Assembly: GCA_024637225.1 (NCBI GenBank)
Contig: JAGXFP010000061.1
Span: forward strand, 1,217-65,216
From: Desulfobacterales bacterium
GTDB taxonomy: Bacteria > Desulfobacterota > Desulfobulbia > Desulfobulbales > JAGXFP01
Reading direction: 5' to 3'
DNA length: 64,000 nt
Positions 9,540 to 58,489 of this stretch are shown here, piece by piece (position 1 is the stretch's first letter; every line of letters begins with the position of its first letter). The notes under the pieces were generated by a model. It saw nothing but the letters and a program-made list of their open reading frames with translations, did not search any database and had not been told where the DNA came from. Made by a program: the position numbers and the translations under genes.

Positions 9540-9543
9540 TATA

Positions 9544-10698: not shown

Positions 10699-10710
10699 AA
10701 TGTTCTCCAA

Positions 10711-11733: not shown

Positions 11734-11921
11734 TAAGACACACCTCCTAAAATAGCATGTAACAAATTTTGGGTCTTGAAATGCCACATTTTTCAAGCTT
11801 GCAGAAAAGCACGCCCAACGCTTAATAATCCGGGACAGATTCCCACCCCGTTCATTTGAAACACTCCTCGTCATGAAGAGTATAGAAACAGGTTACGCTA
11901 ACTTCTGTTACCACATCATCC

Positions 11922-12155
11922 TCACTTTCTATCTTTTGGAGGGCAAGGGTCGTTTCCGTAACTATTGCCTGCTCTGATTTTTCCGTCGCGTCCGTGAATT
12001 TTTGTGTCAGAGTGCTGGTTTCTGGCAATATCCTGTGCCACCGTAATAGCTTGCGCCTGTGTCTGGGTTACCTTTGTCGCCTTGCAGTTGCCCGCACCCT
12101 TAACCGCCCACCCTTCGGGATGTTTTACAACATGCTGATTCTTACCCTTCGTCAT
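11922..12155 (-). CDS. DUF2188-family small protein
   Basis: MTKGKNQHVVKHPEGWAVKGAGN...ITVAQDIARNQHSDTKIHGRDGKIRAGNSYGNDPCPPKD matches the DUF2188 pattern as I remember it. The ATG at 12155 is preceded by GGAGG. Confidence 0.7.
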   Translation of the reverse strand: MTKGKNQHVVKHPEGWAVKGAGNCKATKVTQTQAQAITVAQDIARNQHSDTKIHGRDGKIRAGNSYGNDPCPPKDRK

Positions 12156-12359
12156 AAATAACCTCCGTATGCGTGTTTGTGACTCCATAATTATTTTTTT
12201 CGCCTATTCCACAACATATGCTCACAAACAAAAGGCGATACGCTCCATGTAGTGTTCATTTCAAATATGTTGGCTCTAAGATAAGACTCATCTAAATGTT
12301 TGGCAAGGTGAAAAATTCATTTTTGTTGAAATAAATGATTTTTTTGTGCAAGATATCCA

Positions 12360-12390
12360 TTGAAAGTCGGATTGAAAGGGACTTTGAAAG
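12360..12390 (+). promoter_or_regulatory. Three direct TTGAAAG repeats with 12-nt phasing in the divergent promoter region
   Basis: TTGAAAG at 12360, 12372 and 12384, lying 45-75 nt upstream of the ATPase start at 12435. Possible operator. Confidence 0.4.
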
Positions 12391-12434
12391 GCCTTTTCGC
12401 TCTTCAGTGACAACTTGACAATTAGGAAATAGCA

Positions 12435-13703: not shown

Positions 13704-14362
13704 TGGGAAGTGATCAGCTCTTTCACAAGCGGAAGGCCAAGACGGCTCTTTCACTTAAAAGAAAAAAAGCCAAAAGGTCTTCGTATGATCTGGTTCTTAT
13801 TGTCTGCGAAGGCGAGAAGACAGAGCCGAATTATTTCCGTTCCCTGATTGATGACTTGCAGCTGAATACGGCAAATATCGTCATTGCGAAAAATACTGCC
13901 GGATCATCCCCTGGCACCGTGGTTGACTTTGCCTTGGCTGAATACAAAAAGCAAAAAGAGTACGATCGGGTTTACTGTGTTTTTGATAAAGATCAACATG
14001 CAAATTATGAAAATGCGCTTGATAAAATAAGAAGAGTCAGGCCTGGTAAGGGACATTTAATACTTCCCATCACCTCGGTTCCTTGTTTTGAATTCTGGTT
14101 ATTGCTCCATTTCGCCTACACCACAAAGCAGTTCGATACCGGCCCTGGCTCAATTTGTGCCAATGTTATTTCTGATCTTAAAGACTATTTGCCTCGTTAT
14201 GAGAAAGGTGATGGTGATATTTATCAGGCAATCAAAGATAAGCAGGAGGCTGCAATGACAAACAGTAAGAGAGTTAAGCGACATTGTGTCGCAGCCGGTA
14301 CGGACATGCCATCAACAAACATTCATGAACTGGTAAAATATTTACGACACTTGAAATCATAA
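13703..14362 (+). CDS. RloB-like (Toprim-like) protein, AbiLii-like partner
   Basis: 219 aa. The hallmark LVLIVCEGEKTEPNYF and VYCVFDKD motifs match the RloB family as remembered. Confidence 0.8.
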   Translation: MGSDQLFHKRKAKTALSLKRKKAKRSSYDLVLIVCEGEKTEPNYFRSLIDDLQLNTANIVIAKNTAGSSPGTVVDFALAEYKKQKEYDRVYCVFDKDQHANYENALDKIRRVRPGKGHLILPITSVPCFEFWLLLHFAYTTKQFDTGPGSICANVISDLKDYLPRYEKGDGDIYQAIKDKQEAAMTNSKRVKRHCVAAGTDMPSTNIHELVKYLRHLKS

Positions 14363-14368
14363 AATCTT

Positions 14369-14412
14369 GAATTCCGGGACGTAATACCTAGCTGCCAGTC
14401 ACGGTGAATTCA
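14369..14412. repeat. IS30-like terminal sequence adjoining the transposase stop
   Basis: gaattccgggacgtaatacctagctgccagtcacggtgaattca. Related to the copies at 15824-15885 and 16752-16794. Confidence 0.6.
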
Positions 14413-14964
14413 AATTGCAAGTGCACCACGAGCTTCTTTCCAGAATATTTCACATGGAGTCCGGTAGCCGAGACATTTACGAGGTCGATTGTTTAACCTT
14501 TTAACGGCTTGAATAACGTCTTCTTCTGTTACCTTTTTAAAATCAGTTCCTTTGGGAAAATACTGTCTCAATAACCCGTTGGTGTTTTCATTGGCGCCTC
14601 TTTGCCAGGGAGAGTAGGGCTTGGCAAAGTAAATATCCAGTCCGGTTTTTTCCTCGAATTTCTTGAAATCAGCAAATTCGGACCCGTTATCTACCGTCAG
14701 GGTTTTTCGCATTTTCCTTGGAATGGAACGGAATGATTTGTTGCCCTGGGCGGTCAACGTTGCCGCCTTTTTGTTCTCGAGTTTAGTTGCCAAAAGATAC
14801 CGGCTTTTCCGTTCGACTACTGTGGCGATATAGCCGCTACTTTTTTTACCCTCGATGGTATCGCCTTCCCAATCTCCGTATCGCTGCCGCCCATCAACGA
14901 CCTCGGGGCGCTGGGTTATGCATTTAGAGTTCCGGGGACAGTATATAGAACTACAGAAAGACAA
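14410..14964 (-). pseudogene. IS30-family transposase, N-terminally truncated (catalytic core only)
   Basis: DWEGDT...VDNGSEF...PYSPWQRGANENTNGLLRQYFPKGTDF (DDE core). The HTH N-terminus is missing. The upstream end abuts a partial IS-end repeat at 14927-14952. Confidence 0.8.
14927..14952. repeat. Partial IS30-end repeat
   Basis: gagttccggggacagtatatagaact matches the outer part of the 15824 and 16752 copies. Confidence 0.6.
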
Positions 14965-15127
14965 GGGGTCAATTCTTTATCTGTGACAGTTTGTGTTCAA
15001 TTTTCTCTACTAATCCTCTGGTGTTCTTATCCCAATCATCTAACAGTCTGAAATTGACAACTGGCAGAGTGTGTCACTAGGTGCTATAGTAATTGTATGA
15101 AAATTTCATGACCCAACATTTTGCGAA

Positions 15128-15463
15128 GTGGACAGCAAAGCAAAATATTCCGAAAATGAATTATATAAAGCATTAGAGGAAGTTCGCTCCGGGAAGTACG
15201 AAGCCAATTTAGGTGGTCATGTTTACAAAAAGAGAATCCGGTTTGAAGGCAAGGGGAAAAGTGGCAGTGGCAGAACAATTGTCTGCTACCAAAAAGGTGA
15301 CAAGGCGATATTTGTCCATGGATTTGCAAAAAACGAAAAATCAAACCTATCGAATAAAGAGCTTATCGCTTTGAAGGAGTTTGCAAAAATCCTACTCGGG
15401 TTGTCTGACGAACAAATTCAAATAGCTTTACGGGCAGGAGATTTCATAGAGGTGAAACCATGA
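15128..15463 (+). CDS. RelE/HigB-like toxin (DUF1044-type), possibly 5'-frameshifted
   Basis: LGGHVYKKRIRFEGKGKSGSGRTIVCYQKGDKAIFVHGFAKNEKSNL pattern. The family-typical N-terminus MTQHFAKWTAKQNI is encoded from the ATG at 15108 in a different frame. Confidence 0.7.
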   Translation: MDSKAKYSENELYKALEEVRSGKYEANLGGHVYKKRIRFEGKGKSGSGRTIVCYQKGDKAIFVHGFAKNEKSNLSNKELIALKEFAKILLGLSDEQIQIALRAGDFIEVKP

Positions 15464-15765
15464 GAAAATCAATCGCACAATCAATCACAAGTACCATTAA
15501 AGATTTAAACAAAAGTGGTGTGGTTGACGAAATCACAATGAGAAATATTGAAAACCTGTGTATCCCGGATGTTCACGAGTATACTCCTGAACAAATTATT
15601 ACTATCAGAAAAAAATTTCGACTTAGCCAGGCTGCATTGGCTTCAATATTCAACATAAGCCCTTCAACTGTCCAAAAATGGGAGCAAGGCAATAAAAAGC
15701 CTACGGGAGCCTCACAGAAATTATTAGACATCATTGAAAGGAAAGGAATTCAAGCCCTCGTCTAA
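15460..15765 (+). CDS. HTH (XRE-type) antitoxin partner
   Basis: 101 aa. LSQAALASIFNISPSTVQKWEQG helix-turn-helix. ATGA overlap with the toxin gene. The toxin-first order is HigBA-like. Confidence 0.75.
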   Translation: MRKSIAQSITSTIKDLNKSGVVDEITMRNIENLCIPDVHEYTPEQIITIRKKFRLSQAALASIFNISPSTVQKWEQGNKKPTGASQKLLDIIERKGIQALV

Positions 15766-15823
15766 AACACATAAAAGGATTGGCATATCAAGTTAATTCA
15801 GGTGATGAGTACGGGGTGACCAA

Positions 15824-15885
15824 GAGTTCCGGACCAAGAGTTCAGGAAACAGTATATAGAACTGCTTAGTCATTTGGTGAATTCA
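15824..15885. repeat. Solo IS30-end repeat
   Basis: gagttccgg...cagtatatagaactgcttagtcatttggtgaattca. The last 36 nt differ at one position from 16759-16794. Confidence 0.7.
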
Positions 15886-15974
15886 ATATTCTCACCGACC
15901 AATTCTTCCTAAGGCGAAAGGAAACCGTGTCTGTCCTGCGATTTCCTACATAAAAACGCTGTTCGGTTTTTCCA

Positions 15975-16274
15975 TCAGGGCTTTGTCATTAATCTTTCGC
16001 TGCGCCATACCCTGACAATTCTGACTTTCTTTTTGTCTCTTCGATAAACAATTCTGAAGGGAGGTCGAATAAGTTCCCCCAGATCAACAAGCTCGAATTC
16101 CGGGACTATTCTTCCCATATCGGGATGATCGGCAAGGAGTTCGATATCTCTTATTACTTCTCCGACAAGTTTTTCCCCAATAGAAGAAACCTCTAGCTTT
16201 TGGTAATATTCGAGAACATCCTGTAAGTCATCGAGAGCGGAAGAGGAAAAGGTGATTTTGACTTTAGCCGGCAT
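15975..16274 (-). CDS. ParE/RelE-family toxin
   Basis: 99 aa. ...HPDMGRIVPEF...PPFRIVYRRDKKKVRIVRVWRSERL pattern typical of ParE. Confidence 0.8.
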   Translation of the reverse strand: MPAKVKITFSSSALDDLQDVLEYYQKLEVSSIGEKLVGEVIRDIELLADHPDMGRIVPEFELVDLGELIRPPFRIVYRRDKKKVRIVRVWRSERLMTKP

Positions 16275-16275
16275 C

Positions 16276-16545
16276 CTATTTTACGTTCAGCTTTTTTTTG
16301 ATGTCGGCCAGGCTTATTTCCCTGCCTTCTTCCAAGTCCACCATGCCTTCGACCACCGCTTTCATGAATGCCTGCTTTTCAAGACCGGCTTCATAATCAT
16401 TCAGGTCTTGGACCACGGCTACTCCCCGACCCCTGCTGGTCAGAACCACCGGCCGATGAACCTCACGGACCTGTTTGACGATTTTGCCGGGATTTACTTT
16501 AAGGACGCTGATCGGAACAATGTCTTCGGAAAACTTGGTATTCAT
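16276..16545 (-). CDS. Phd/YefM-family antitoxin
   Basis: MNTKFSEDIVPISVLKVNPGKIVKQVREVHRPVVLTSRGRGVAVVQDLNDYE. The ATG at 16545 is preceded by GAGGAG. Ends 1 nt before the toxin start. Confidence 0.8.
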   Translation of the reverse strand: MNTKFSEDIVPISVLKVNPGKIVKQVREVHRPVVLTSRGRGVAVVQDLNDYEAGLEKQAFMKAVVEGMVDLEEGREISLADIKKKLNVK

Positions 16546-16751
16546 AAACGGCTCCTCGCTAACGACCTGTTGACAGGTCTTAAAATAGCACCTGTTAAAA
16601 GCCAGGTCAAGCCGACTTCTTCCTCGTGGCACAGGAAAGAGTTCGGAGTTCGGGGTCATAATACGAACTACTCTTTTAGAGTCGGCTCATCCGGCTTTTG
16701 AGGGAGCATAGGGGGGCGTTCTTGAATATCAAGGGGGTCATATGTCAGGTC

Positions 16752-16794
16752 AAGTTCCGGGTATATAAAACTGCTTAGTCATTTGGTGAATTCA
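16752..16794. repeat. Solo IS30-end repeat
   Basis: aagttccgggtatataaaactgcttagtcatttggtgaattca. Confidence 0.7.
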
Positions 16795-16963
16795 GGTGGA
16801 GCTGGCCCTGGTGTATTGCTTGAAAATGCGGTGCGGGACTTTCCTTAGGACCGGAATTAAGAGTACACAGGCGAAGGCCGGAGCGATGGCTGATTGGCGT
16901 ATTTCCCTTCTTTCATCCTTCGGGTATAAGTCTCATACGAGCAGACAAGCTGTCAACTCGGCT

Positions 16964-17311
16964 TTATCCTATGATCTGGTGCATGATTTCCCGGAGGGAG
17001 TGACGGTCACTTGCCGACAAACTGCCCATTTTTTTCAAGACAAGAGTTTTTTCTATCGTGGTCAGGATCGGTTTGATCAACGAAGGCTTGAGCAGTCCGG
17101 CTTCCTGCCAGTCTTTCACCTCGGCATCTCCGGTTTTACCGAGATGATGCATCTGGCTGGTGACGGCCATGAGTATGATGTCCGGTCTGTCGTTGTTGTA
17201 CGCGTCGGAGCTGATGATAACCGCAGGCCGTTTTTTGCTGGTTGACTGATCTGTGAAGGGAAACGGAACAAGGATGATATCGCCGAAATTATAGGTTGTC
17301 ATATTCGGCAT
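16964..17311 (-). CDS. PemK/MazF-family toxin
   Basis: 115 aa. GDIILVPFPFTDQSTSKKRPAVIIS hallmark. Confidence 0.8.
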   Translation of the reverse strand: MPNMTTYNFGDIILVPFPFTDQSTSKKRPAVIISSDAYNNDRPDIILMAVTSQMHHLGKTGDAEVKDWQEAGLLKPSLIKPILTTIEKTLVLKKMGSLSASDRHSLREIMHQIIG

Positions 17312-17483
17312 CGTCCGGGTTGTCCCATGCTTTCTGAAAGGATTTTTCTGAAAGCTTAGCGGCGACAGCCGTCAAATGCATGTCGTCGTCACGGTGCCGC
17401 AGAAAGTCGACAAAATCTTCGACCACGGCAATCTTCTCTGGCGGCAAGTTTTGTATCTTTTCAAACAATTCTTGTGGTTGCAT
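17289..17483 (-). CDS. Small antitoxin (DUF2281-like) for the MazF-like toxin
   Basis: MQPQELFEKIQNLPPEKIAVVEDFVDFLRHR. The ATG at 17483 has an upstream GAGG. Overlaps the toxin start by 23 nt. Confidence 0.65.
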   Translation of the reverse strand: MQPQELFEKIQNLPPEKIAVVEDFVDFLRHRDDDMHLTAVAAKLSEKSFQKAWDNPDDAEYDNL

Positions 17484-17646
17484 CGACTCGCCTCTTAATG
17501 TATCGCCCCTGACTTGGTGGCAGTCTGCTGAACTTGCTGCTGAGTTGAAATAGCCGGGCAGGCGCGCTCGGCGCACCATTCCTAAGTCGTCACAGATGAG
17601 GATATTAAATATAATAAACTATTAATGAAAACATGCAAAAATATAT

Positions 17647-17683
17647 CTCCGGAACTCGGGAACTCACTGGAGTTCCGGGACGG
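17647..17683. repeat. Imperfect palindrome at the island's right edge
   Basis: ctCCGGAACTCgggaactcactgGAGTTCCGGgacgg, with 9-bp arms and a 12-nt loop. The second arm is the junction motif found throughout the island. Confidence 0.6.
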
Positions 17684-17874
17684 TTAAAAAAAGGGTCATG
17701 CCTCGTTTTGACTCATGTTGCGCAATCTATTGATATTTAGAAGAAAAACGACCTCTTTTCCCATCGCCGCCAACCCCTAATCGTGAGTAACCCAGAATAG
17801 GCAGCGTTACCGGCTGAAAGGTCGGCATTCTTATTTCATTCAGTAAATCAGCGCTTGTTGAGCCCTGTAAAAAT

Positions 17875-18267
17875 TCAGTTTTTCAAGGCGACACTGACCA
17901 TCCGGCCGGCATCGTCGCGAAACCTGAGTTCACCCTCGACCTCGCCTTTGGCCAGCGGCCGGCCGAGCGCAAAAGAAATGGTCATCTTGCCGGGGTTCGG
18001 TTTGTTAAGCAGCCATTTCGCCACTCCGCCGGCCGGATCGTATGTTTTCAACTTCGGCTTCGAATCGATCATCTTGACCCCTTGGGGCAGGTTCTGGATA
18101 ACGATCACCAGCGATGGCGGCGGGGAGCCGATCTCAAGTTCTATTTCTATCCTCTCCCCAGCCCCTTGCAGGTAGCGGCCGGAAACCAATTCTTCCGCCC
18201 CGGCCGGGGAAGGGCCAAGCAGAACCCCCGTAAGCAAAAACGCCAACAGCAACCGATAAAAATCCAT
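17875..18267 (-). CDS. Secreted protein of unknown function
   Basis: Signal peptide MDFYRLLLAFLLTGVLLGPSPAGA. The ATG at 18267 is preceded by AGGAGAAG. Its domain resembles the periplasmic part of the upstream gene product. Confidence 0.6.
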   Translation of the reverse strand: MDFYRLLLAFLLTGVLLGPSPAGAEELVSGRYLQGAGERIEIELEIGSPPPSLVIVIQNLPQGVKMIDSKPKLKTYDPAGGVAKWLLNKPNPGKMTISFALGRPLAKGEVEGELRFRDDAGRMVSVALKN

Positions 18268-48005: not shown

Positions 48006-48407
48006 ATGAAAGAGTTTTTTGCCGCCGCCCTTATCCTGCTTTCGCTCTTCACCTTCGCCGGCTGCTCCCAGGCCGAGGACTCCGCCGATGAAGCCGGGGA
48101 AGTCGTCCCCGGCATCCCGGTCAAAGACACCGTGACCATGGTCGATCTCGGCGCCAAAACCTGCGTCCCCTGCAAGTTGATGGCGCCGATTCTGGAGGAG
48201 CTGAAGGAAGAGTACCGGGGCCGGGCCGAGGTGATCTTCATCGATGTCTGGGACCGGGCCAACGAGGGCAAGGCCCGGGCCTTCAAGGTCATGGCGATCC
48301 CCACCCAGATTTTCTATGATCGACAGGGGAAAGAAACCTTTCGCCATACCGGCTTTTTCGACAAGAAATCAATCGCCGCCAAACTGGACGAGCTTTTGGA
48401 ACAGTGA
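48006..48407 (+). CDS. Thioredoxin-fold lipoprotein (TlpA/periplasmic thiol:disulfide oxidoreductase-like)
   Basis: Lipobox LFTFAGC. CVPC active site. Thioredoxin-fold ...MAIPTQIFYD. Confidence 0.8.
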   Translation: MKEFFAAALILLSLFTFAGCSQAEDSADEAGEVVPGIPVKDTVTMVDLGAKTCVPCKLMAPILEELKEEYRGRAEVIFIDVWDRANEGKARAFKVMAIPTQIFYDRQGKETFRHTGFFDKKSIAAKLDELLEQ

Positions 48408-49105
48408 GCATGGACGATATTCTTTTAACAATCACCGCATGGCTGACCTCCGGTCCAGCCATTGCCTTGCCGGCCGCCTTTCTCTGGGGCATGGTCAGCG
48501 TGCTCCTGTCCCCCTGTCACATCGCCTCGATTCCCCTGATGATCGCCTATGTAGCGGGGCAGAAAATCATCCCGCCGCCGCGCCAGGCGGCCCGTTACGC
48601 CGTCCTCTTCGCCGGCGGCATGTTCCTGACCATTATGGCGATCGGCCTGATCTGCGCCGCCGCCGGGCGGATGCTCGGCGACATCGGCCCGTGGTGGCAG
48701 GCGGCGGTGGGAATCCTCCTGCTCTGGGTAGCCTGGACCCTGTTCAGGCCGCCGCAATGCTCCGCCACCGGCAACGTCCTCAGCCGCTTGAAGATCCAGG
48801 GGGCCCCGGGCGCCTTGGTCCTCGGTCTCGCCTACGGGTTGCTCTCCGGGGTCTGCACCTTCGGCTTCATCACCCCGATCCTCGGGATCATCACCCTGCA
48901 GGAGGAGATTGCCATCGGGATCGCCATGCTGGTCCTCTTCGGGATCGGCCACTGCCTGCCCCTGGTGGTCTGCGGGATCTTTTCCGCCCGGACCATGGAG
49001 CTGCTCCACGGTCATGCCGGTCAAAGGGTGGTGGCCACGATGCGTAAACTGGCGGCGGTGGTGATTGCCGGACTGGGGATCTATTTTCTCCTTGCCGCGT
49101 GGTAA
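48404..49105 (+). CDS. ccdA: CcdA/DsbD-type transmembrane thiol:disulfide electron transporter
   Basis: 233 aa, six TM segments. Membrane-embedded Cys in LLSPCHIASIPL and SGVCTFGF. Start overlaps the thioredoxin stop (GTGA). Confidence 0.75.
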   Translation: MSMDDILLTITAWLTSGPAIALPAAFLWGMVSVLLSPCHIASIPLMIAYVAGQKIIPPPRQAARYAVLFAGGMFLTIMAIGLICAAAGRMLGDIGPWWQAAVGILLLWVAWTLFRPPQCSATGNVLSRLKIQGAPGALVLGLAYGLLSGVCTFGFITPILGIITLQEEIAIGIAMLVLFGIGHCLPLVVCGIFSARTMELLHGHAGQRVVATMRKLAAVVIAGLGIYFLLAAW

Positions 49106-49269
49106 TCACCCGACAAGACTTCACCCTGGCCGCCCCCCCACCCCTAATCCTTGTGATTCCATCCCATTCTGCGACAATTTGCCACATTTTCAACCTTGCC
49201 ACACCGTGGTACATATCCCCTAATTAAAATTTATTTTACCCTCTGCAACACCTCTAGAGAGCCTTTTCA

Positions 49270-51351
49270 GTGATTTTTCTTAAAAACAGGAAGGAGACAT
49301 TCTTGCGATATTATTTTTTGATGATGACGATGACGGTTGCCTTGATGCCACGTTGGTTGCATGGGGCGGAAGTGCAACAGGAACTTGATGAAGTGGTCGT
49401 AACGGCCTCAAGGGTCAGCGAAAAGATTAAAGACACCGCGGTCACCGTTAATGTGCTCTCCGAACCGGAATTGGAGAAGGTGAAGGCCAGGAATCCGGCC
49501 GATTTTCTGAGCCGCCTGCCGGGAATCAACTCCCAGAACCTCGGCGGCGAATCAGAGCTTACCGCCATCAGGGTTCCGACTCATTTCACTAATCCCTATA
49601 CCATCGTCCTGCTGGATGGAGTACCGGCAGCCAGTTACGGATCAGGCAGTTCCAGCCAGTTCAGCCAGCTGAATAGCGACAATATCGCCAGGATTGAGGT
49701 CATTAAGGGTCCAGCCTCCGCTCTCTATGGCAGTAATGCCATCGGTGGCATCATCAACGTCATCACCAAGAACCCCTCCGCCAAGCCGCAAGTCAAAATC
49801 TGGAGCGAATTGGGGGATTACAAGCAGTGGCGCAGCGGCCTCTCCGGCAGCGGCGGCAGTGGCCCTTTCGGGTTCAATCTCGATCTGAGCCGGATTGACA
49901 GCAAAGGCTGGCGCGACAATAATAGACTCGATAAAAAAGCCGCCACGATCAAATCCATCTATACCAACAACGATGCCTCGCTACTTTCATTCAAAATAGA
50001 TCTGCTCAGTTCCGAAAATGAAACGCCCGGCACCTTGAGCGCGGCCGATTTTTACCGGGACTGGCAACACAGCTATCAAACCTTTACCTATAAAAAATCC
50101 AATAAGTTTGCCCCGGCCCTCTCCTACAACCATTACTTTGCGGCCTCGGAGTTCAGTGCCACCCTGGCCCTGCGCGATATCGAAGAAGAAAGCATACCCA
50201 ATTACAGTGTACGCCAGTTGCCCTATGGGCCCACCCCGCGCCCCTATATCGGCAGCAAGACAACCTCCGACAGCCGGGATGTTGACCTGCAACTTTTATA
50301 CAGCCATAATTTCAGCCAGGGCCGCAGCAAGGTCAATTCCGGTCTCGATCTGGTTCGGGGCAGCAATGAAGCCGACAACTACGACCTGGCCGTGACCTAC
50401 GACCCGGTCCAGGACCTGTACACCTCCTACACCATCGGGGCCCTGGCCAAATCATACGATATCACCAGCAAAGTCATCGCGCCCTACCTGCAGCTGGAAA
50501 CTTCCCCCCTTGAAAAACTGCGGTTCAGCGCCGGGGGCCGTTATGACTCCGCGGAATATGAGGTTGATGACCTGTTGGGCGGCGGCACCGGTGGCGACAA
50601 GGAATTCTCCAAATCCAGCCCCAAGGTCGGCCTGACCTACGACATTTCAGCCTCACTGAACGGTTATCTCAGCTACGCGGAAGGCTTCATCGTCCCAACC
50701 ACCAGTCAGTTATGGACCTCCCGTTATGACAACAGTGATCTGGCTCCGGAGAAGGCCAAGAATTATGAGGTCGGCCTGCGGTCAAGTTTCATGCGGAACC
50801 GGTTGAAGGTCGATGGCTCAATCTATGCCATGGATATCACCGACAAAATCGTGGTCGATGCCACTGACACCATGTACATCAATGCCGGCGAGACATCCCA
50901 GGAAGGCGTTGAGCTCATGGCAACATATGCCCCCCTTGCTCTGGCCCGTCTGACCGTGGCCTACACCTATGCCCTTAACAAATATCAGGTTTATAGCACC
51001 GGCGGGATCGACTACAGCGGCAACTACCAGCCCCGTTCTCCCAAACACCATCTCAATGCCAGACTTACCCTGGTTCCCGCCCGGGACCTGGAGGTGGAAC
51101 TGGAGGTTGACGAGATCAGCGCCCAATATGCCGACGACGCCAATCTCCATGAATACAACCGCCCTACTCTGTTAAACCTGCGGGTCGGCTATGCCTGGCA
51201 AAGCTGGTCCGTCTGGGGCCACATCCTAAATCTGACCGATGAAACCTTTGCCGCCTATATAAGCGATGATGCCGCCGACATGAACCTTTATCCCGGCGCC
51301 CCGCGCACGATTTTTGCCGGCCTTTCCTATAGATTCGGAGGAAACAGGTAG
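49270..51351 (+). CDS. TonB-dependent outer-membrane receptor
   Basis: 693 aa. TonB box/plug DEVVVTASR. IEVIKGPASALYGSNAIGGIINVITK. C-terminal beta-barrel ending ...AGLSYRF GGNR. Confidence 0.9.
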   Translation: MIFLKNRKETFLRYYFLMMTMTVALMPRWLHGAEVQQELDEVVVTASRVSEKIKDTAVTVNVLSEPELEKVKARNPADFLSRLPGINSQNLGGESELTAIRVPTHFTNPYTIVLLDGVPAASYGSGSSSQFSQLNSDNIARIEVIKGPASALYGSNAIGGIINVITKNPSAKPQVKIWSELGDYKQWRSGLSGSGGSGPFGFNLDLSRIDSKGWRDNNRLDKKAATIKSIYTNNDASLLSFKIDLLSSENETPGTLSAADFYRDWQHSYQTFTYKKSNKFAPALSYNHYFAASEFSATLALRDIEEESIPNYSVRQLPYGPTPRPYIGSKTTSDSRDVDLQLLYSHNFSQGRSKVNSGLDLVRGSNEADNYDLAVTYDPVQDLYTSYTIGALAKSYDITSKVIAPYLQLETSPLEKLRFSAGGRYDSAEYEVDDLLGGGTGGDKEFSKSSPKVGLTYDISASLNGYLSYAEGFIVPTTSQLWTSRYDNSDLAPEKAKNYEVGLRSSFMRNRLKVDGSIYAMDITDKIVVDATDTMYINAGETSQEGVELMATYAPLALARLTVAYTYALNKYQVYSTGGIDYSGNYQPRSPKHHLNARLTLVPARDLEVELEVDEISAQYADDANLHEYNRPTLLNLRVGYAWQSWSVWGHILNLTDETFAAYISDDAADMNLYPGAPRTIFAGLSYRFGGNR

Positions 51352-51374
51352 TGTTTCCCCTTCCTGACTTGACT

Positions 51375-52424
51375 ATGAAAAGACCGAACTTAAACCGCAG
51401 CCGGACCCTGATCTTCGCCTTGTTCTTGCTTGTGGGGGTGACCCAGGCCAAGGCCCGAGATTTGCCGCCATTACGTCTTTCTCCGGCCCCGGCGGCCAAT
51501 GTTGAAGATTGCGAACAACACGGTCCGCAACCGACCCAAGCTGAGGCCCCCAAAGGCCGCGGCGGCGGCCCCGGCGGCCGACCGGGCCGGAAGGCAGCAC
51601 TGGAATCGGAACATCGCCCCCAACCGATGCGGACCTATGCCTTTAACGAGCATCGCCGCCGAGCCCGGATCGAGGCCTTTGTCAGACGCCCGGATGGCTC
51701 GGTGATTCAGCCGACCCTGCAGCTCGGAGTCAACCCTAACCTCTCTTTCCCTACCCCGATGGGGGAAGGGCCAAGCCATGGGGCCAACAATGTTTATCTA
51801 ATTGAACAGGGCGTCGAAGATCGGGTCCTGGTAGTGCGGATTGCCCAATGGCTGACCATGCACCATAACTGCGGCTGGGGCCATGAGCATAAGTTCGACG
51901 AGCAGCGCACCCGGCCCCAGGCCCTGGAAACCATTCCCCTGGAGATCGTCATCGACGAGCTCTGGGACCCGAATTTCCATGCCAAGGTAACTTCCGGCCA
52001 ACAACTGAAAATTATGGTTTTGCGCCATGGTAAACCATTGGCGGGTGCCAAGGTTCAACTCCAGACCGCCGAAAAATGGGTCAAGGAAGTAATCACCGGT
52101 AAGGATGGCATCGCCTCCCTGCAGTTGATCAAAGATTATTACCCGGCCAAATGGGCGGATTTCCTCCGGACCAAAAGGGCGGAATTCCTGGTAACCGCGT
52201 ACGCTGAGGTTGACGAACCAGGGACCTTCGCGGAACTCCCCTATCAAAGGGTGCGTTATATCTCCACCCTGCCTTGGCAGTATGCTCCGGCCCGGGCAGA
52301 CTATACCTCATACGGCCTGGGACTGCTGATCGGCCTCATGGGCTTTACCCTCACCGGCGGCGGCATCTATTTCTACCGGGAGCGGCGGAAGAAACCCTAC
52401 CAGGGGATTGACCTTGATGGGTGA
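51375..52424 (+). CDS. DUF4198-like periplasmic protein with a C-terminal membrane anchor
   Basis: Signal peptide after the ATG at 51375. Gly/Pro-rich linker. GQQLKIMVLRHGKPLAGAKVQL beta-sandwich pattern typical of DUF4198. C-terminal TM followed by RERRKK. Confidence 0.65.
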   Translation: MKRPNLNRSRTLIFALFLLVGVTQAKARDLPPLRLSPAPAANVEDCEQHGPQPTQAEAPKGRGGGPGGRPGRKAALESEHRPQPMRTYAFNEHRRRARIEAFVRRPDGSVIQPTLQLGVNPNLSFPTPMGEGPSHGANNVYLIEQGVEDRVLVVRIAQWLTMHHNCGWGHEHKFDEQRTRPQALETIPLEIVIDELWDPNFHAKVTSGQQLKIMVLRHGKPLAGAKVQLQTAEKWVKEVITGKDGIASLQLIKDYYPAKWADFLRTKRAEFLVTAYAEVDEPGTFAELPYQRVRYISTLPWQYAPARADYTSYGLGLLIGLMGFTLTGGGIYFYRERRKKPYQGIDLDG

Positions 52425-53415
52425 GATAATGGGCAATTTCCGGAGAGCAATCAATAACACCAGCCTGAGCCGCTTCCGCTTCTATTTTCAAGCCGCTTCT
52501 TTTCTCCTCCTGATCTATGGCGGTTATCTGGCCTTAAATCTCGGCGACCAGCTCCCGACCTTTGCCTGCATCTTCAGCGAACCGCGCGGCGGCTCCTGCT
52601 ATCTCTTCGGCTTGCAGCATCAGATGACCACCCCCTGGACGAGTTATTTATCCGGGCGCGGGATCGGCTTACTCGTCGGGTTTCTGACTTTTATCGCTTT
52701 TTTCATCGTCTTCAACAAGGCCTGGTGCGGCTTTGCCTGCCCCCTGGGGACCATTCAGGACTGGTTGACCGCGCTCCGCGCCAGGTTCAAGATCAGATAT
52801 GCCAACTATGCCGAGCCCACATTTCAAAGACTCAAAAAGATAAAATATATCCTGTTGGCCCTGCTGATTCTGATTCCCATGGCCATCGGCAACTCATTTT
52901 TCGGGCTGCCCAAACTGAATCATGATTTTGGCGTGCCCTTCTGCATGATCTGCCCGGGGCGCACCATCCTGCCGCTCTTCAGCGGCGACTTCTCGCAATT
53001 GGCCCTTGATCTGAGTTCTAAAAGCAAGATGATTCTCACCGCCCTTGGTCTCATGGTCACCGGAATCTTTCTGTCCGGCTCATTCATCAAGAAACGTTTT
53101 TTCTGCCTGTTCTGCCCGATGAGCGCCTTCCATTATATCTTTGCCAATGCCGCTCTTTTGCGATTAAGCAAGGACGCCGGCAAATGCTCCAGGTGCGGCA
53201 ACTGCTATCGAGCCTGTGATGTCGGGATCAGGGCGATTGCCGATGATCTCCAACACAAAAATATCGTCAAGGATGATTGCATGCTGTGTGGCAAATGCGT
53301 GGAGATGTGTCCGGAAGAGGGCTGCCTGCAGGTCAAGTTCCTAGGTCTGCCGATTTATCAATCCACCGCCGAGGGCTTCTTCAAGCGGATGCAGGGGCGT
53401 AACAATGCAAAGTGA
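52408..53415 (+). CDS. NapH/MauN-type membrane polyferredoxin (4Fe-4S binding)
   Basis: TM helices. WCGFACPLGTIQDW motif. C-terminal CSRCGNCYRAC and CMLCGKCVEMCP clusters. The start may instead be at 52417 or 52429. Confidence 0.8.
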   Translation: MTLMGEIMGNFRRAINNTSLSRFRFYFQAASFLLLIYGGYLALNLGDQLPTFACIFSEPRGGSCYLFGLQHQMTTPWTSYLSGRGIGLLVGFLTFIAFFIVFNKAWCGFACPLGTIQDWLTALRARFKIRYANYAEPTFQRLKKIKYILLALLILIPMAIGNSFFGLPKLNHDFGVPFCMICPGRTILPLFSGDFSQLALDLSSKSKMILTALGLMVTGIFLSGSFIKKRFFCLFCPMSAFHYIFANAALLRLSKDAGKCSRCGNCYRACDVGIRAIADDLQHKNIVKDDCMLCGKCVEMCPEEGCLQVKFLGLPIYQSTAEGFFKRMQGRNNAK

Positions 53416-54682
53416 TGCTGATAAAAGATTTGCCAGAATGCAAAAGGCCACCGCCCTTCACCTGGCCATGGAAGGTGAGGAAACCCTGCAACACCTGACG
53501 GAATTTTCGGACAATCCCAAGGCCATGGACTATTTTTACGACCTGTTCCGGAATCTTTACAAAAACGGCCACAAGCTCCCGACGGACAAAAAAGTAATCG
53601 GCACCATGTGCCTGCAGGTGCCGGATGAACTGATCTATGCCGCAGGCGCGGTGCCCATGCGAATGTGCAGCGGCGCCTATGCCTATGAGCAGGTAGGGGC
53701 CGAGTTCATGCCGGCCAAATCCTGCCCGGTGGTCAAGGCCACTACCGGCATGCTCCATGTCAATCAGGCCCTGTGGGGCGAGGCCGTGGCCTCGGTGGTG
53801 CTCCCCACCACCTGTGATCAAAAAAAGAAGTGCGGCGAAATGCTGAAAGAGATGGGCTACCCGGTCTACATTCTGGAGATGCCCTCCAGCAAGGACAGCG
53901 AGGGGGCCAGGTTCTACTGGCAGGAATCGATCAAGAAATTCACCCTCGATCTGCAGAAGATCACCGGTAACAAAATTACTTCCGGCAAACTCCAGACCGT
54001 AATTGCCGACATGGCCGAATGTTCGCGCCTGTTCCGTAAGCTTAACGACCTGCGTAAATCAAAAACCCCGCTGATCTTCGGCAAGGATATTTTCCTGGTG
54101 ACCAGCGCCTATTTTATTGACGAGATGGCGAGCTGGCGGCAGGCCGTTCGCCAACTCATTGAAGAACTGGAAGTATGGCGGCAGAATGATATCGCCATCA
54201 CCAACCGGCAGGCCCCCCGCATGCTGTTGACCGGTTCCCCGCCCATCTTTCCCAACCTCAAAGTGCCGATTCTGGTCGAACAGGCCGGCGGGATCATTGT
54301 GGCCGACGAGGTCTGCTCCTCAAACCGGTTGCTGCACGATGCCGTGGCCTATGACGAAGCCAATCTTAATGACATGGCGGCGGCCCTGGCCGACCGCTAT
54401 CTCAAGCCTTGCACCTGCCCCTGCCTCACTCCCAATACCGATCGCAATCGGAAACTTGCGGAACTGGTCAAAAGTCATGCGGTAGAAGGCGTGATCTATC
54501 AGGCATTTTCCGGCTGTTTGCCGTACGAGATGGAGCAAAAGCAGATCAGCAATACCTTGAGTAAGGCCGGGGTGCCCATGCTCTATCTGGAAACGGATTA
54601 CAGCAGCGAAGACCTGGGCCAGTTATCAACCAGGGTTGAAGCCTTTATCGAATCGATCAAGGCCAGAAGGAGGAAGAAATAA
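53405..54682 (+). CDS. HGD-D family protein (2-hydroxyacyl-CoA dehydratase / double-cubane cluster protein-like), single subunit
   Basis: 425 aa with many conserved-looking Cys contexts (GTMCLQVPDE, AKSCPVV, PTTCDQKKKCGE, EVCSSN, KPCTCPC, FSGCLPY). Overall BcrC/BadD/HgdB-like layout. Confidence 0.75.
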   Translation: MQSDADKRFARMQKATALHLAMEGEETLQHLTEFSDNPKAMDYFYDLFRNLYKNGHKLPTDKKVIGTMCLQVPDELIYAAGAVPMRMCSGAYAYEQVGAEFMPAKSCPVVKATTGMLHVNQALWGEAVASVVLPTTCDQKKKCGEMLKEMGYPVYILEMPSSKDSEGARFYWQESIKKFTLDLQKITGNKITSGKLQTVIADMAECSRLFRKLNDLRKSKTPLIFGKDIFLVTSAYFIDEMASWRQAVRQLIEELEVWRQNDIAITNRQAPRMLLTGSPPIFPNLKVPILVEQAGGIIVADEVCSSNRLLHDAVAYDEANLNDMAAALADRYLKPCTCPCLTPNTDRNRKLAELVKSHAVEGVIYQAFSGCLPYEMEQKQISNTLSKAGVPMLYLETDYSSEDLGQLSTRVEAFIESIKARRRKK

Positions 54683-55497
54683 TGCACTATTTTGCCGGAA
54701 TTGATATTGGCTCCACCACCATCAAGATCGTCTTGACCGATGCCGGCGACCGAATCGTCGCCCAGGACTGCCAGCCCACCGGCTGTCATTTTCACAAAAA
54801 CACCCTGACTGCCTTTGAAAGTCTCCTGGCCCGGGCGGAACTCACCCGTCATGACGTGGCATACATATTTTCAACCGGTTATGGACGCAAGCTCTTCAAG
54901 GAGGCGGATGAATCAATCAGCGAAATCTCCGCCAATGCTATGGGCGCCAATAAGGCCGCCGAAAAATATGGCACGATCAAGACCATTATTAACATCGGCG
55001 GCCAAGACCTTAAGGTCATTGGTCTGGACGAAGACGGCCACGTTAAAAACTTTACCATGAACGATAAATGCGCCGCCGGCACCGGCCGTTTCCTGGAAAT
55101 GACCGCCCGCAACCTGGAAATGGATGTGGCGCAACTGGGCGCTTGTCATAAGCAGGCCCGGGGGGTGCCGTTGACCATCAACAGTACCTGCACGGTCTTT
55201 GCCGAATCGGAGATCATCGGTCTGCTGGCCAACGGCAACGGCAAGGAGGAACTGGTGGCGGGCGTTCATTACTCCATCGCCCGGCGAATCAGTCGTCTGG
55301 CCAAAAGAGTCGGCATTGAAGGCACGGTCTTTTTTGATGGCGGTCCGGCCCTAAACGAAGGGCTGGTTGAAGCCCTGGAGATCGAGCTGATGCGCAAGGT
55401 GGTGGTGCCAGAATTCCCGCAGACGACCACGGCCCTGGGTGCCGCGTTGATCGCCAGAGAAACCTTTTGTTATCTGGGAGAAGCCGTCAATGACTGA
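54682..55497 (+). CDS. BcrAD/BadFG/HgdC-type ATP-dependent activase (electron-injecting ATPase)
   Basis: AGIDIGSTTIKIV ASKHA phosphate-1 motif. Cluster Cys contexts NDKCAAGTGRFLE and NSTCTVFAESE. ATAATG overlap with the previous gene. Confidence 0.88.
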   Translation: MHYFAGIDIGSTTIKIVLTDAGDRIVAQDCQPTGCHFHKNTLTAFESLLARAELTRHDVAYIFSTGYGRKLFKEADESISEISANAMGANKAAEKYGTIKTIINIGGQDLKVIGLDEDGHVKNFTMNDKCAAGTGRFLEMTARNLEMDVAQLGACHKQARGVPLTINSTCTVFAESEIIGLLANGNGKEELVAGVHYSIARRISRLAKRVGIEGTVFFDGGPALNEGLVEALEIELMRKVVVPEFPQTTTALGAALIARETFCYLGEAVND

Positions 55498-55672
55498 CGG
55501 CGTCGTAAAAAAATCACGATCTCCCGCGTCGCAAGGACTTTTTGCTCACTCGCCATGCCGGATGTATGGCCTCGCTCGCAAAAACACCCTGCCCATTGCA
55601 TATCAAACTTTTTATTTAGCCATCCCAAAGCTTTTTTATCTACGTCCAAACTTGTTATCCGCGAGGAAATAA

Positions 55673-56296
55673 ATGGTTGAATTTGATGCGGCCGGTCTCT
55701 TTACCCTGGGTCTGGTCTATGGCACCACGGTCTGCAGTCTGACCTGCCTTTCGTATCTTGGCCCCTATCTGTTGGGGACCGGCGATGGTTTTCGGGACGG
55801 GGTGCTAAGCATTCTCGCCTTCGGCCTCGGCAAGATCTGCTGCTACGTATTCCTCGGGGGGTTGGCGGGCTACCTCGGCCAGAAACTGAGCTATAGCCCG
55901 GCCCATTCCTGGGCGATGGGCCTGATTTTAATCGGGGTGGCCCTCTCCATGCCTTTGGCAACCAAGCGTGGTTGCCGAAAAAAGTGTCGGCCGGGGGGTA
56001 AACGGGCCTCACTCCTGACCCTGGGCGCGGCCACCAGCCTGATACCCTGTCCGCCGGTACTCGCCATACTGGCTCTGGCGGCCGGCCAAGGCTCAATGGT
56101 TACCGGCATGGGCTTCGGCCTCGTTTACGGGCTGGGCATTATCATCTCCCCCCTGCTGGTGATCGGGGGGAGCCTGGCCCTGGTTTCCCAGAAACTCCGC
56201 CAGGAAGCAAAAAGTTTCATGCCCTACATCCAGAGTCTGGCCATGACGATCATGATTCTGATGGTCGTCAATATTTTCCATGGGGGCATCCGCTAA
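55673..56296 (+). CDS. DsbD_2/CcdA-like membrane protein with paired Cys motifs
   Basis: 207 aa, about six TM segments. VCSLTCLSYLGP and LIPCPP motifs, plus a cytoplasmic CRKKC loop. Confidence 0.65.
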   Translation: MVEFDAAGLFTLGLVYGTTVCSLTCLSYLGPYLLGTGDGFRDGVLSILAFGLGKICCYVFLGGLAGYLGQKLSYSPAHSWAMGLILIGVALSMPLATKRGCRKKCRPGGKRASLLTLGAATSLIPCPPVLAILALAAGQGSMVTGMGFGLVYGLGIIISPLLVIGGSLALVSQKLRQEAKSFMPYIQSLAMTIMILMVVNIFHGGIR

Positions 56297-56721
56297 TGGA
56301 CTGGCTCAAATACGCAATCGACTACGGGATCATCGGCCTGCTGCTGCTGATGAGTTTTGTGGTGGTCAGTGTCGGGGTGGAACGCTATCTGCTCCTTAAA
56401 AAAATAAGAATCGAGGATTTTATCGACAGGAGAAGTCTGGAACTTGAATTGAGCAGCAAGATGCACCTGATCGCCACCATCGGCAGCAGCGCCCCCTATA
56501 TCGGCTTGCTGGGCACCGTTTTAGGGATCATGTTGACCTTTTACTCCATGGGCAAGAGCGGTTTCATGGATACCAACAAGATCATGGTCGGCCTGGCCCT
56601 GGCCCTGAAGGTCACCGCCGTCGGCCTCCTGGTCGCCATTCCGGCGGTCATCATCTACAACCTGCTGCTCAGGAAAATCAAGGTCCTGATCATGCAATGG
56701 GAGATCCGCGATGGACGATAG
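56296..56721 (+). CDS. exbB: MotA/TolQ/ExbB proton-channel protein
   Basis: 141 aa. ...IGSSAPYIGLLGTVLGIM... hallmark. Confidence 0.88.
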   Translation: MDWLKYAIDYGIIGLLLLMSFVVVSVGVERYLLLKKIRIEDFIDRRSLELELSSKMHLIATIGSSAPYIGLLGTVLGIMLTFYSMGKSGFMDTNKIMVGLALALKVTAVGLLVAIPAVIIYNLLLRKIKVLIMQWEIRDGR

Positions 56722-57091
56722 CGGGTTTGAATCGATAAATATCATTCCGCTGGTTGATGTGATGCTGGTGCTTTTAACCATCGTCCTGACCACCTCGACC
56801 TTTATTGCGGCCGGCGCCATCCCGCTGCAATTGCCCATGGCGGCGAACGCCACTACCGCCCCCTTAAAATCCGCAACCGTGGTGATCGACAAAGGGGGCC
56901 GGCTCTATCTGAACTCGCAATTGGCCAGCCTCGAAAAACTGGGACGGGACTTAATGGGGATCGACAGGGAAACGCCGATCCTGATTCGGGCCGACAAAGC
57001 GATCGCCCTTGAGGTTTTTGTGGAAGTGATGGATCTGGTGAAAGGCTTAGGCTTTACCAAGGTAAGCCTGCAGACCGAGGCCGCAAGATGA
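56711..57091 (+). CDS. exbD: ExbD/TolR biopolymer transport protein
   Basis: 126 aa. INIIPLVDVMLVLL TM with the conserved Asp. Confidence 0.88.
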   Translation: MDDSGFESINIIPLVDVMLVLLTIVLTTSTFIAAGAIPLQLPMAANATTAPLKSATVVIDKGGRLYLNSQLASLEKLGRDLMGIDRETPILIRADKAIALEVFVEVMDLVKGLGFTKVSLQTEAAR

Positions 57092-57837
57092 ACAACAACG
57101 TTAAGGGTCTCGGTATCTCATTGGTTTTGCATGGGGCTATCCTCTATTCGTTGTCCCTAACCACTCTGCTGCCGGTAGCCGAGATACCCAAGGTCATAGA
57201 TCTCAGTCGGGTCGAACACCTTGGCGCTCGCCACCAAGAACCTGTCAAAAGACCCCCGGCTTTGCGGGCGCCCTCCGTGCTTAAGCCGGCAGCAAAAACC
57301 CCAAGAGCTCCCATGGTTGCGAAAACCACGGTGCCGATCTTAGCTGAAGAGCCTATTGCCGAGCAAGAGCTGCCCCCGGAACCATTGAACGAGGCGCCGG
57401 TCATGGCGGAAAAGATCAGCGAGGAAGAGGTATATGAGGCCCAGGTCGCAACCTTGGCTGAAACAGAAACCACCACCGCTCCGCCCCCGGCAACGGAAAG
57501 CGCTGCCCAAGCCATAAACTCAACCAGCTCCGACCTCGCCGACGTGGGTTTAAGCAAAGGGCTCTACGTTGAGGCAAACTTTCACCACATTAAGGACAAT
57601 ATCCAAAAAGGTATCACGTATCCGCGCATTGCCCGGCAAATGGGCTGGGAAGGTAAGGTCATCGTCAGTTTTGTGGTTGGCAGGGATGGCACCGTTCAGG
57701 ACGTGCATATTGTCGAGAGTTCCGGTTTTGCCGCTCTGGACAAAAACGCCATCGCCACCATCAAAAAGGCGGCCCCCTTCCCCTGCCCGCTGGTCAGGGC
57801 TGAACTGGTGGTCCCGGTCATTTATCGGCTGGCGTGA
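57088..57837 (+). CDS. tonB: Energy transducer TonB
   Basis: N-terminal TM, Pro/Ala-rich spacer, C-terminal YPRIARQMGWEGKVIVSFVV...G.V..V.IV.SSG...LD.A. Confidence 0.88.
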   Translation: MNNNVKGLGISLVLHGAILYSLSLTTLLPVAEIPKVIDLSRVEHLGARHQEPVKRPPALRAPSVLKPAAKTPRAPMVAKTTVPILAEEPIAEQELPPEPLNEAPVMAEKISEEEVYEAQVATLAETETTTAPPPATESAAQAINSTSSDLADVGLSKGLYVEANFHHIKDNIQKGITYPRIARQMGWEGKVIVSFVVGRDGTVQDVHIVESSGFAALDKNAIATIKKAAPFPCPLVRAELVVPVIYRLA

Positions 57838-58045
57838 ATACTTGCCCGAATGGCAGTCTGTGGAGTACCTTGAGTTCCGATTGAATCCCGATGACACCCC
57901 CTCCCCCTAAACTGTCCCATGGATGATAACCTCAATCAGCATCATAGATAGAGAGGTTGCGGCATTCAGAGTTCCCGGGGCGGTTCTCCGTAAACCGGCG
58001 GCGGGGGTGAGTGCCGGGGTTGATTGCTATATTTACGGTGAGCAC

Positions 58046-58489
<444 letters not shown>

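Follow-up and report, generated by a model that had tools for sequence, protein, structure and literature searches.

The closest described relatives of the system discussed here are the double-cubane cluster protein (DCCP) of Carboxydothermus hydrogenoformans and its reductase (DCCP-R), which are said to have been described by Jeoung and Dobbek in 2018 and 2022 (PDB 6ENO, 7YYL and 7YZM). What the double-cubane cluster proteins do in the cell has, to our knowledge, been an open question since 2018. Acetylene, azide and hydrazine are reduced by double-cubane enzymes, which reach potentials beyond that of dithionite (PMC9351452; PMC11971306), and the BzdN protein, which shares the HGD-D fold, holds an [8Fe-9S] cluster with six cysteine ligands (PMC11971306). 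Here we examined a pair of genes in a 64,000-nucleotide stretch of DNA from a Desulfobacterales bacterium (assembly GCA_024637225.1, contig JAGXFP010000061.1; hereafter the window), which a first-pass annotation had likened to DCCP and DCCP-R. Our analysis confirmed that positions 53405 to 55497 of the window encode a lone reductase, predicted to be of the double-cubane type, together with its putative ATP-driven activator. We regard it as fairly likely that this pair serves as the cytoplasmic, very-low-potential engine of a membrane module for TonB-dependent metal acquisition.

Both open reading frames of the pair, which encode an HGD-D protein and an activase, were borne out with the positions and sizes listed in Table 1. 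All of the cysteine contexts that had been pointed out beforehand were also recovered, namely C69 (GTMCLQV), C107 (AKSCPVV), C137/C143 (PTTCDQKKKCGE), C304 (EVCSSN), C336/C338/C340 (KPCTCPC) and C371 (FSGCLPY) in the HGD-D protein, and C130 (NDKCAAGTG) and C170 (NSTCTVFAESE) in the activase. The stop codon of the first gene and the start codon of the second overlap in the sequence TAATG, and an AGGAGG ribosome-binding site precedes this junction, an arrangement that usually indicates translational coupling.

Several lines of comparison place the HGD-D protein next to DCCP. It marginally passes the double_cubane equivalog model NF040772, with 353.5 bits against a cut-off of 350, and it does not pass the curated subunit models for HadB (18 bits, cut-off 750), HadC (99, cut-off 700), BzdN (TIGR03190; 115, cut-off 454) and BcrC (88, cut-off 421). 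Its nearest sequences in the PDB are the Carboxydothermus DCCP entries 7YYL_C (1.1e-68) and 6ENO (3.9e-68), followed by BzdN (2e-30), HadC and MbdN. An AlphaFold2 model computed with 19 orthologues as input reached a predicted local distance difference test score (pLDDT) of 83.8 and a predicted template-modelling score (pTM) of 0.86. When this model was searched with Foldseek, the first five ranks were all taken by DCCP chains (E 7e-30 to 2e-27, TM 0.81–0.86) with 6ENO at the top (E 7e-30, TM 0.83), and BzdN and HadC ranked behind them.

The proposed cluster ligands are likewise retained. Exactly six cysteines, C69, C107, C137, C304, C338 and C371, are common to the HGD-D protein, to 6ENO and to BzdN (8S02_B), such that each of the six cysteines shared by DCCP and BzdN, the two proteins in which an [8Fe-9S] cluster is known, has its counterpart here. 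These six residues are the predicted [8Fe-9S] ligands, and we infer from the alignments one [8Fe-9S] cluster per subunit. Two further cysteines, C88 and C340, are matched in DCCP only and not in BzdN. The six shared cysteines plus C88 are invariant in the 19 orthologues encoded by the conserved gene set described below, which we refer to as the cassette.

The activase scored 233.5 bits on TIGR00241 (cut-off 125.4). In the alignment, C130 corresponds to C115 of DCCP-R and C170 to the second DCCP-R ligand, which is located in the INSxCTVFAESE helix; in the DCCP-R dimer, the two matching residues bridge a [4Fe-4S] cluster (PMC9351452). Both cysteines also match the ligands of HadI and HgdC, and both are invariant among 20 activase orthologues. 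The protein is a putative ASKHA-fold ATPase, in which C130 and C170 are predicted to bridge one [4Fe-4S] cluster in a homodimer. Its closest relative in the PDB is HadI (2e-62), with DCCP-R (7YYL_E) in fourth place (1e-41).

The first-pass annotation had counted only one HGD-D protein, and this holds for the whole 3.28-Mb source assembly (88% complete), in which a search with PF06050 recovered no HGD-D gene besides the one at 53405–54682. The corresponding search of the source genome with PF01869 recovered only the activase at 54682–55497 and no other BcrAD_BadFG gene. A second HGD-D partner was also sought with PF06050 in four other carriers of the cassette, one of them closed and 100% complete (G031; the others being G007, G033 and G035), and none was identified. 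We infer that the protein is homomeric, with a single type of HGD-D subunit.

The resemblance to DCCP nevertheless stops short of orthology. Relatives from the same order encode a second type of pair, about 30% identical to the HGD-D protein of the window, which stands alone without a NapH-like or DsbD_2 neighbor and represents the canonical type (E 2e-142 to 6ENO, 487–491 bits on NF040772). Seven other proteins associated with the membrane module scored 307–365 bits on the same model and, together with the protein of the window, straddle its cut-off; P0025, which has a Fer4_5 neighbor but no adjacent activase, scored 405.5 bits. In a tree of 123 sequences (the loci plus representatives at 50% identity), inferred with FastTree only, drawn with midpoint rooting and containing several long branches, 18 cassette orthologues and six representatives formed one clade and the canonical DCCPs a separate one, both with Shimodaira-Hasegawa-like support of 100. 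Further representatives whose genes have Fer4_5 and DsbD_2 neighbors fell in at least two other positions of the tree. As judged from these sequence comparisons, the HGD-D protein of the window belongs to a paralogous sister clade of the characterized Carboxydothermus DCCP and is not its orthologue. The suggested match to DCCP and DCCP-R therefore stands, and neither of the two refuting conditions set out in the annotation, a loss of the cluster ligands or an obligate second HGD-D subunit, was borne out. Two refinements are that the HGD-D protein is a paralogue and not an orthologue of DCCP, and that the activase, although it retains both cluster-bridging cysteines, is nearer in sequence to HadI than to DCCP-R.

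Canonical pairs coexist with the cassette type, or stand in its place, in related Desulfobulbales genomes; one was located at L094:5128-7381 (G024) and others at loci L093, L095 and L096. In G024, the two types of pairs are located on one contig. The wider family appears to be small, since only 232 representatives in a library of 1.84 billion proteins matched at E<=1e-30. A practical consequence of the straddled cut-off is that some members of the clade will be named double-cubane reductase and others dehydratase family protein.

The annotation had also anticipated that an uptake operon would give the pair a functional context, and this was well founded since the gene order is conserved across phyla. 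In the window, the genes for a TonB-dependent receptor, a DUF4198-like protein, a NapH-like protein, the DCCP-like protein, the activase, a DsbD_2 protein, ExbB, ExbD and TonB are arranged in a co-directional run with overlapping or abutting ends. Eight genomes, drawn from several families of the same order, have all nine genes in synteny at DCCP identities of 57–86%, and a ninth locus (49% DCCP identity), which is cut by a contig end, holds the first five genes. These close relatives belong to the Desulfobulbales (Desulfurivibrionaceae, Candidatus Desulfobia). A core consisting of the DUF4198-like, NapH-like, DCCP and activase genes, with the DsbD_2 and receptor genes nearby, was identified in Candidatus Thiodiazotropha, Thiohalomonas denitrificans, a Nitrospirae metagenome-assembled genome (MAG) and an alphaproteobacterial MAG, as well as in Sulfurovum, Sulfurimonas, Sulfurospirillum and Aliarcobacter of the Campylobacterota. 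Synteny of the core is thereby kept across four phyla down to approximately 47% identity, and the order Fer4_5, HGD-D, activase, DsbD_2 persists in metagenome contigs at 33–40% identity. Between distant cassettes, the identity of the receptors is only about 25%, so that the constant part is the membrane-plus-reductase core.

Some of the more distant loci depart from this arrangement. At L062:4647-9753 (GCA_013332095.1; 33% identity), a second HGD-D gene encoding 382 amino acids is located two genes upstream of the Fer4_5, HGD-D, activase and DsbD_2 genes, and an OmpR-type two-component pair is found downstream; this variant may be a heteromeric form. At L060:11-3706, the Fer4_5 and HGD-D genes are followed by a HcyBio gene (PF01837) where the activase would adjoin, with cytochrome c maturation genes beside it. 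In the Campylobacterota, the DUF4198-like protein is about 919 amino acids long, and its DUF4198-like part is preceded by Fer4_5 and NosL domains. This fusion is encoded directly upstream of the NapH-like gene, at L038:6225-8984 in Sulfurovum sp. CS9 and at equivalent positions in loci L039-L041, and in these Sulfurovum-type loci an AcrB-type resistance-nodulation-division pump follows the activase.

Table 1. Positions of the cassette genes and of the upstream box in the window.
Feature	Positions	Strand	Remarks
Box TGCGACA-ATT-TGCCACA(TT), TGCGACAATTTGCCACATT	49170-49188	+	~100 nucleotides upstream of the receptor gene
TonB-dependent outer-membrane receptor	49270-51351	+	Pfam Plug and TonB_dep_Rec_b-barrel
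Putative DUF4198-fold periplasmic metal-capture protein	51351-52424	+	357 amino acids; Pfam DUF4198 weak (23 bits vs 34)
NapH/CcoG-type membrane polyferredoxin	52408-53415	+	335 amino acids; Pfam Fer4_5, Fer4_10 (Fer4_5 plus two [4Fe-4S]); weak NCBIfam NapH
HGD-D gene (DCCP-like, P0001)	53405-54682	+	425 amino acids; Pfam HGD-D 1e-90
Activase gene (P0002)	54682-55497	+	271 amino acids; Pfam BcrAD_BadFG 1e-53
DsbD_2-family inner-membrane protein	55673-56296	+	Pfam DsbD_2 3.5e-17
ExbB	56296-56721	+	Pfam, NCBIfam
ExbD	56711-57091	+	Pfam, NCBIfam
TonB	57088-57837	+	Pfam, NCBIfam

The partner proteins provide further indications of what the module may handle. In the 357-amino acid DUF4198-like protein, a signal peptide is followed by a beta-sandwich body, a transmembrane helix near the C terminus and a conserved cytoplasmic tail. 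A phmmer search with this protein against the PDB gave no match, and its relatives were found by the fold search alone: with an AlphaFold2 model (pLDDT 79.1), the top Foldseek matches were structures of Zcp in which Cu, Zn or Co is bound (E 1e-9) and of a DUF4198 protein in complex with Ni (9GCB). Proteins of the DUF4198 family are periplasmic metal binders that are often encoded beside TonB receptors (PMC12663993; PMC12537917). The motif HHxCxxGHxH (H171-H180) is kept in the versions from the Desulfobulbales, Nitrospirae and Gammaproteobacteria, and it is absent from the DUF4198-like versions of the Campylobacterota.

The gene for the NapH-like polyferredoxin overlaps the genes on both sides. 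In 20 orthologues of this protein, C54, C64, C107, C111, C179, C182, C233 and C236 are invariant, as are the eight ferredoxin cysteines. Hydrophobicity and charge along the sequence suggest four transmembrane helices, which would place C54/C64 and C179/C182 on the outside and C107/C111 and C233/C236 on the inside. The DsbD_2 protein has an invariant CxxxC motif in the first transmembrane helix (C21, C25) and an invariant PC motif (C126), and almost every related locus has its gene beside the pair or close to it; the protein could act as a thiol relay or, alternatively, as a channel through which a thiophilic metal passes. The ExbB, ExbD and TonB genes, whose products would energize the receptor, are syntenic with the cassette in the Desulfobulbales and Nitrospirae loci. 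The true start of the receptor is probably a TTG codon at about 49303, behind a GGAGA site. An OprC/NosA-like assignment was rejected for the receptor, as the closest proteins of known structure are YncD and PqqU (1e-32).

A few features in and around the operon deserve mention. A non-coding gap of 175 nucleotides (55498–55672) separates the activase and DsbD_2 genes, which abut each other in relatives of the same genus; a pattern scan of this gap gave no clear terminator, and in a scan for consensus promoters and terminators the sites were no more numerous than in shuffled sequence. Downstream of the TonB gene, an open reading frame of 146 amino acids (57923–58360) has no match in Pfam or NCBIfam and no counterpart in the related loci. 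Genes for a lipoprotein thioredoxin (CVPC, 133 amino acids) and a CcdA/DsbD_TM protein (233 amino acids) are located at 48006–49105, directly upstream of the box. In a search of the relatives for which the thioredoxin served as the sole query of the two, it was not found beside the cassette in any of them. Because it is not conserved in this position, we do not count the two genes among the parts of the cassette, and they probably represent a separate periplasmic thiol-reducing pair. Finally, the stretch from about 8000 to 18000 in the window has a G+C content of 0.41–0.48, as compared with about 0.55–0.62 elsewhere in the window, and looks like an acquired island.

The box upstream of the receptor gene links the cassette to other genes in the same genomes, with which it makes up a small conserved regulon. 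It spans 18–19 bp, reads as a direct repeat TGCGACA-N3-TGCCACA and is kept upstream of the cassette in eight loci, the window and seven relatives; it is likely the binding site of a transcription factor and hence a candidate operator. The source genome contains three exact copies and one with three mismatches, as compared with none in the reversed control; the copies outside the window are located at C11:6585, C15:16842 and C62:103953 (loci L046-L049). These copies lie ahead of three targets. One is a NosL-family gene on contig 11, with genes for a PilS-like histidine kinase and for a REC-HTH_8 regulator downstream of it; the second is a C_GCAxxG_C_C gene, and the third encodes an uncharacterized protein of 789 amino acids beside an FtsX-type permease. 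Five relatives have 4–7 sites each, with at most one in the control. Across six genomes, the box precedes the cassette receptor gene in all six, a NosL-like gene in five and a C_GCAxxG_C_C gene in four, and the kinase also recurs. A genome from the same genus retains the order sigma-54 regulator, box, NosL, kinase, regulator.

In the relatives, the box is also located ahead of genes for multihaem cytochromes and a ferredoxin, and an extended -10-like TGnTA element is found about 20–25 nucleotides downstream of it. We rejected the idea that the box is a sigma-54 promoter, as one base is missing from the GG-to-GC spacing and the match is on the wrong strand. Scans of the window and 24 related loci with Rfam gave hits only to RNase P, tRNAs and one c-di-GMP-I riboswitch (L037, about 1.4 kb upstream of the receptor), and no riboswitch was tied to the cassette.

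Taken together, the NosL fusion in the Campylobacterota and the shared box in the Desulfobulbales are two independent lines that tie NosL-type proteins to the cassette. In one studied case, NosL is a Cu(I) chaperone (PMC7558416). A second NosL gene of the source genome (C54:19093-22467; L056:5186-10349) is accompanied by a TlpA-like redoxin and MacB/FtsX-type ATP-binding cassette genes, and does not sit with nosZ or nosDFY. The source genome also encodes a haem-copper oxidase, which implies that the organism has a demand for copper.

The mechanism that we envisage for the module is as follows. A metal complex would be imported by the TonB-dependent receptor in the outer membrane and captured in the periplasm by the membrane-anchored DUF4198-fold protein, and the NapH-like polyferredoxin would link the membrane to the activase and the DCCP-like protein. 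ATP hydrolysis by the activase could then drive very-low-potential electrons into a reductive step in which the metal or its ligand is released or converted, and the product might be handled by the DsbD_2 protein and by NosL-type chaperones. The analysis demonstrates the family, the fold, the conservation of the ligands, the single-subunit genetics, the conserved synteny and the co-regulation; the cluster type, the oligomeric state, the direction of electron flow and the nature of the cargo are the conjectural parts of this scheme. The cargo is probably a thiophilic transition metal, for which copper is our leading guess because of the NosL fusion and the co-regulation with NosL. A role in metal handling is suggested by the modelled DUF4198 fold, the NosL fusion, the shared box, the haem-copper oxidase, and the analogy with CcoG, a Fer4_5 polyferredoxin and cupric reductase with a periplasmic immunoglobulin-like domain and an unknown electron donor (PMC7558416).

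In a more tentative extension of this idea, which we put forward as conceivable rather than probable, the clade drives an oxygen-free, ATP-driven reductive acquisition of metals in bacteria of the sulfur cycle. A thiophilic metal, with copper again as the first candidate, would be freed from an otherwise inert imported complex, with electrons below the normal biological window, under the control of a dedicated regulon, which would probably be run by a two-component system.

Some observations weigh against the proposed identity and role of the pair. The activase resembles HadI more than DCCP-R, the NF040772 score of the HGD-D protein is borderline, and some members of the clade (307–347 bits) fall under the cut-off. 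The predicted [8Fe-9S] ligands were deduced from the intersection of the DCCP and BzdN alignments, and the cluster and activity assigned to the clade are likewise read across from relatives. Furthermore, a potential below -500 mV is more than Cu(II), Ni, Co and Zn ions would require by themselves, and the true substrate is therefore probably a ligand or an unusual complex. The divergence of the receptors indicates that the cargo may differ between clades.

A different arrangement of the same components is possible, although we consider it unlikely. The DCCP-like protein could store or relay electrons rather than act as a catalyst, in which case the electrons would flow outward via the cysteine sites of the NapH-like protein and the substrate would be reduced at the periplasmic face, on the DUF4198-like protein. 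The double-cubane cluster of BzdN can indeed store electrons (PMC11971306), the invariant cysteine pairs of the NapH-like protein are predicted on both faces of the membrane, besides its two ferredoxin clusters, and the DUF4198-like protein is anchored in the membrane with a conserved cytoplasmic tail. However, the topology of the NapH-like protein was read from its sequence alone, the clusters of NapH and CcoG are cytoplasmic, and no periplasmic redox cofactor domain is present. In addition, the reduction of small molecules by canonical DCCP takes place at the cluster of the enzyme itself (PMC9351452).

We also considered the possibility that the imported cargo is a corrinoid or another cobalt complex, which the module would reduce or remodel, with Co(II)/Co(I) chemistry as one example. 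The reduction of Co(II) to Co(I) needs ATP-driven low-potential electrons, as with RACE-type activators. The plug of the receptor resembles the BtuB plug (82 bits), but the receptor reaches only 156 bits on the B12-receptor model TIGR01779, which has a cut-off of 600, and no cob or cbi genes were identified beside the cassette in the neighborhood examined. Moreover, no cobalamin riboswitch was detected at the Rfam gathering score in the window and the 24 related loci; the clade instead has a different, protein-type operator in common with NosL-like genes. We therefore regard a corrinoid or cobalt cargo as improbable.

An explanation in which the pair is simply orthologous to the Carboxydothermus system, does the same soluble job and lies in the operon by accident is very improbable. 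The NF040772 cut-off is passed and DCCP is the best match in the PDB, yet the tree and the synteny contradict this explanation: canonical stand-alone pairs occur in the relatives, in one case sharing a contig with a cassette; the proteins of the cassette type group in a clade of their own, and their neighborhood is syntenic across four phyla. The weakest candidate, a subunit of a 2-hydroxyacyl-CoA dehydratase or class I benzoyl-CoA reductase with a partner encoded elsewhere, has in its favor the common Pfam family HGD-D and the similarity of the activase to HadI, but can hardly be entertained given the single HGD-D gene in the source genome, in one closed carrier and in three more, the scores of 18–115 bits on models with cut-offs of 421–750, and the finding that the Pfam and NCBIfam annotation of the window contains no CoA-transferase or acyl-CoA genes near the pair.

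Should the more tentative scenario of reductive metal acquisition prove true, it would for the first time assign a physiological function to a double-cubane enzyme. In the searchable literature, we found no paper that joins double-cubane enzymes with TonB-dependent transport, nor any that joins NosL with TonB and an activase or that deals with the family PF13386. What is new in our analysis is the conserved operator with its NosL regulon and the split between canonical and cassette proteins as measured on NF040772. With the gene set, partners of the pair can be named, a class of cargo and an operator can be put forward as candidates, and carriers that can be cultivated are at hand (Sulfurovum, Sulfurospirillum, Aliarcobacter and Thiohalomonas). 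The gene set also bears on how bacteria gain trace metals that are locked up in sulfidic water, and on what feeds electrons to membrane metal reductases of the CcoG type.

Compared with DCCP and DCCP-R, the pair in the window has the same composition, with one type of HGD-D subunit and one ASKHA activase, the same fold (TM 0.83–0.86), the six shared [8Fe-9S]-type cysteines and both of the cluster-bridging cysteines of the activase. It differs in that the HGD-D protein is only about 32–34% identical to DCCP over the Foldseek alignment, belongs to its own clade and has a borderline score on NF040772. Furthermore, DCCP has been treated as a soluble two-component system, whereas the pair of this clade is always wired to genes for NapH-like, DsbD_2, DUF4198-fold and TonB import proteins. 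The similarity to BzdN (BzdNOPQ, PDB 8S02) extends to the HGD-D fold and the six [8Fe-9S] cysteines, which match cysteines in the HGD-D protein. However, BzdN needs the different partner BzdO, in which the catalytic [4Fe-4S]-OH2 cluster resides, and its substrate is a CoA ester; the pair in the window has neither a partner subunit nor genes of a CoA pathway.

On the membrane side, the 335-amino acid protein shares with CcoG/FixG and with proteins of the NapH/NosR type the Fer4_5 transmembrane module, the CxxxCP-type motifs and two [4Fe-4S] clusters, but falls far under the curated cut-offs (79 bits on the NapH model, as compared with 234). In contrast to CcoG, the periplasmic beta-sandwich part is a separate DUF4198-fold protein in the window, and a dedicated ATP-driven reductase is encoded alongside. 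The 357-amino acid protein has the fold of Zcp from Neisseria gonorrhoeae and of the Ni-binding IsDUF4198, proteins of a kind that adjoin TonB receptors and bind Zn, Ni, Co or Cu. It differs from both in its candidate site HHxCxxGHxH, its C-terminal anchor and its conserved cytoplasmic tail, and its counterpart in the Campylobacterota is set apart from them by the fusion to NosL and Fer4_5 domains.

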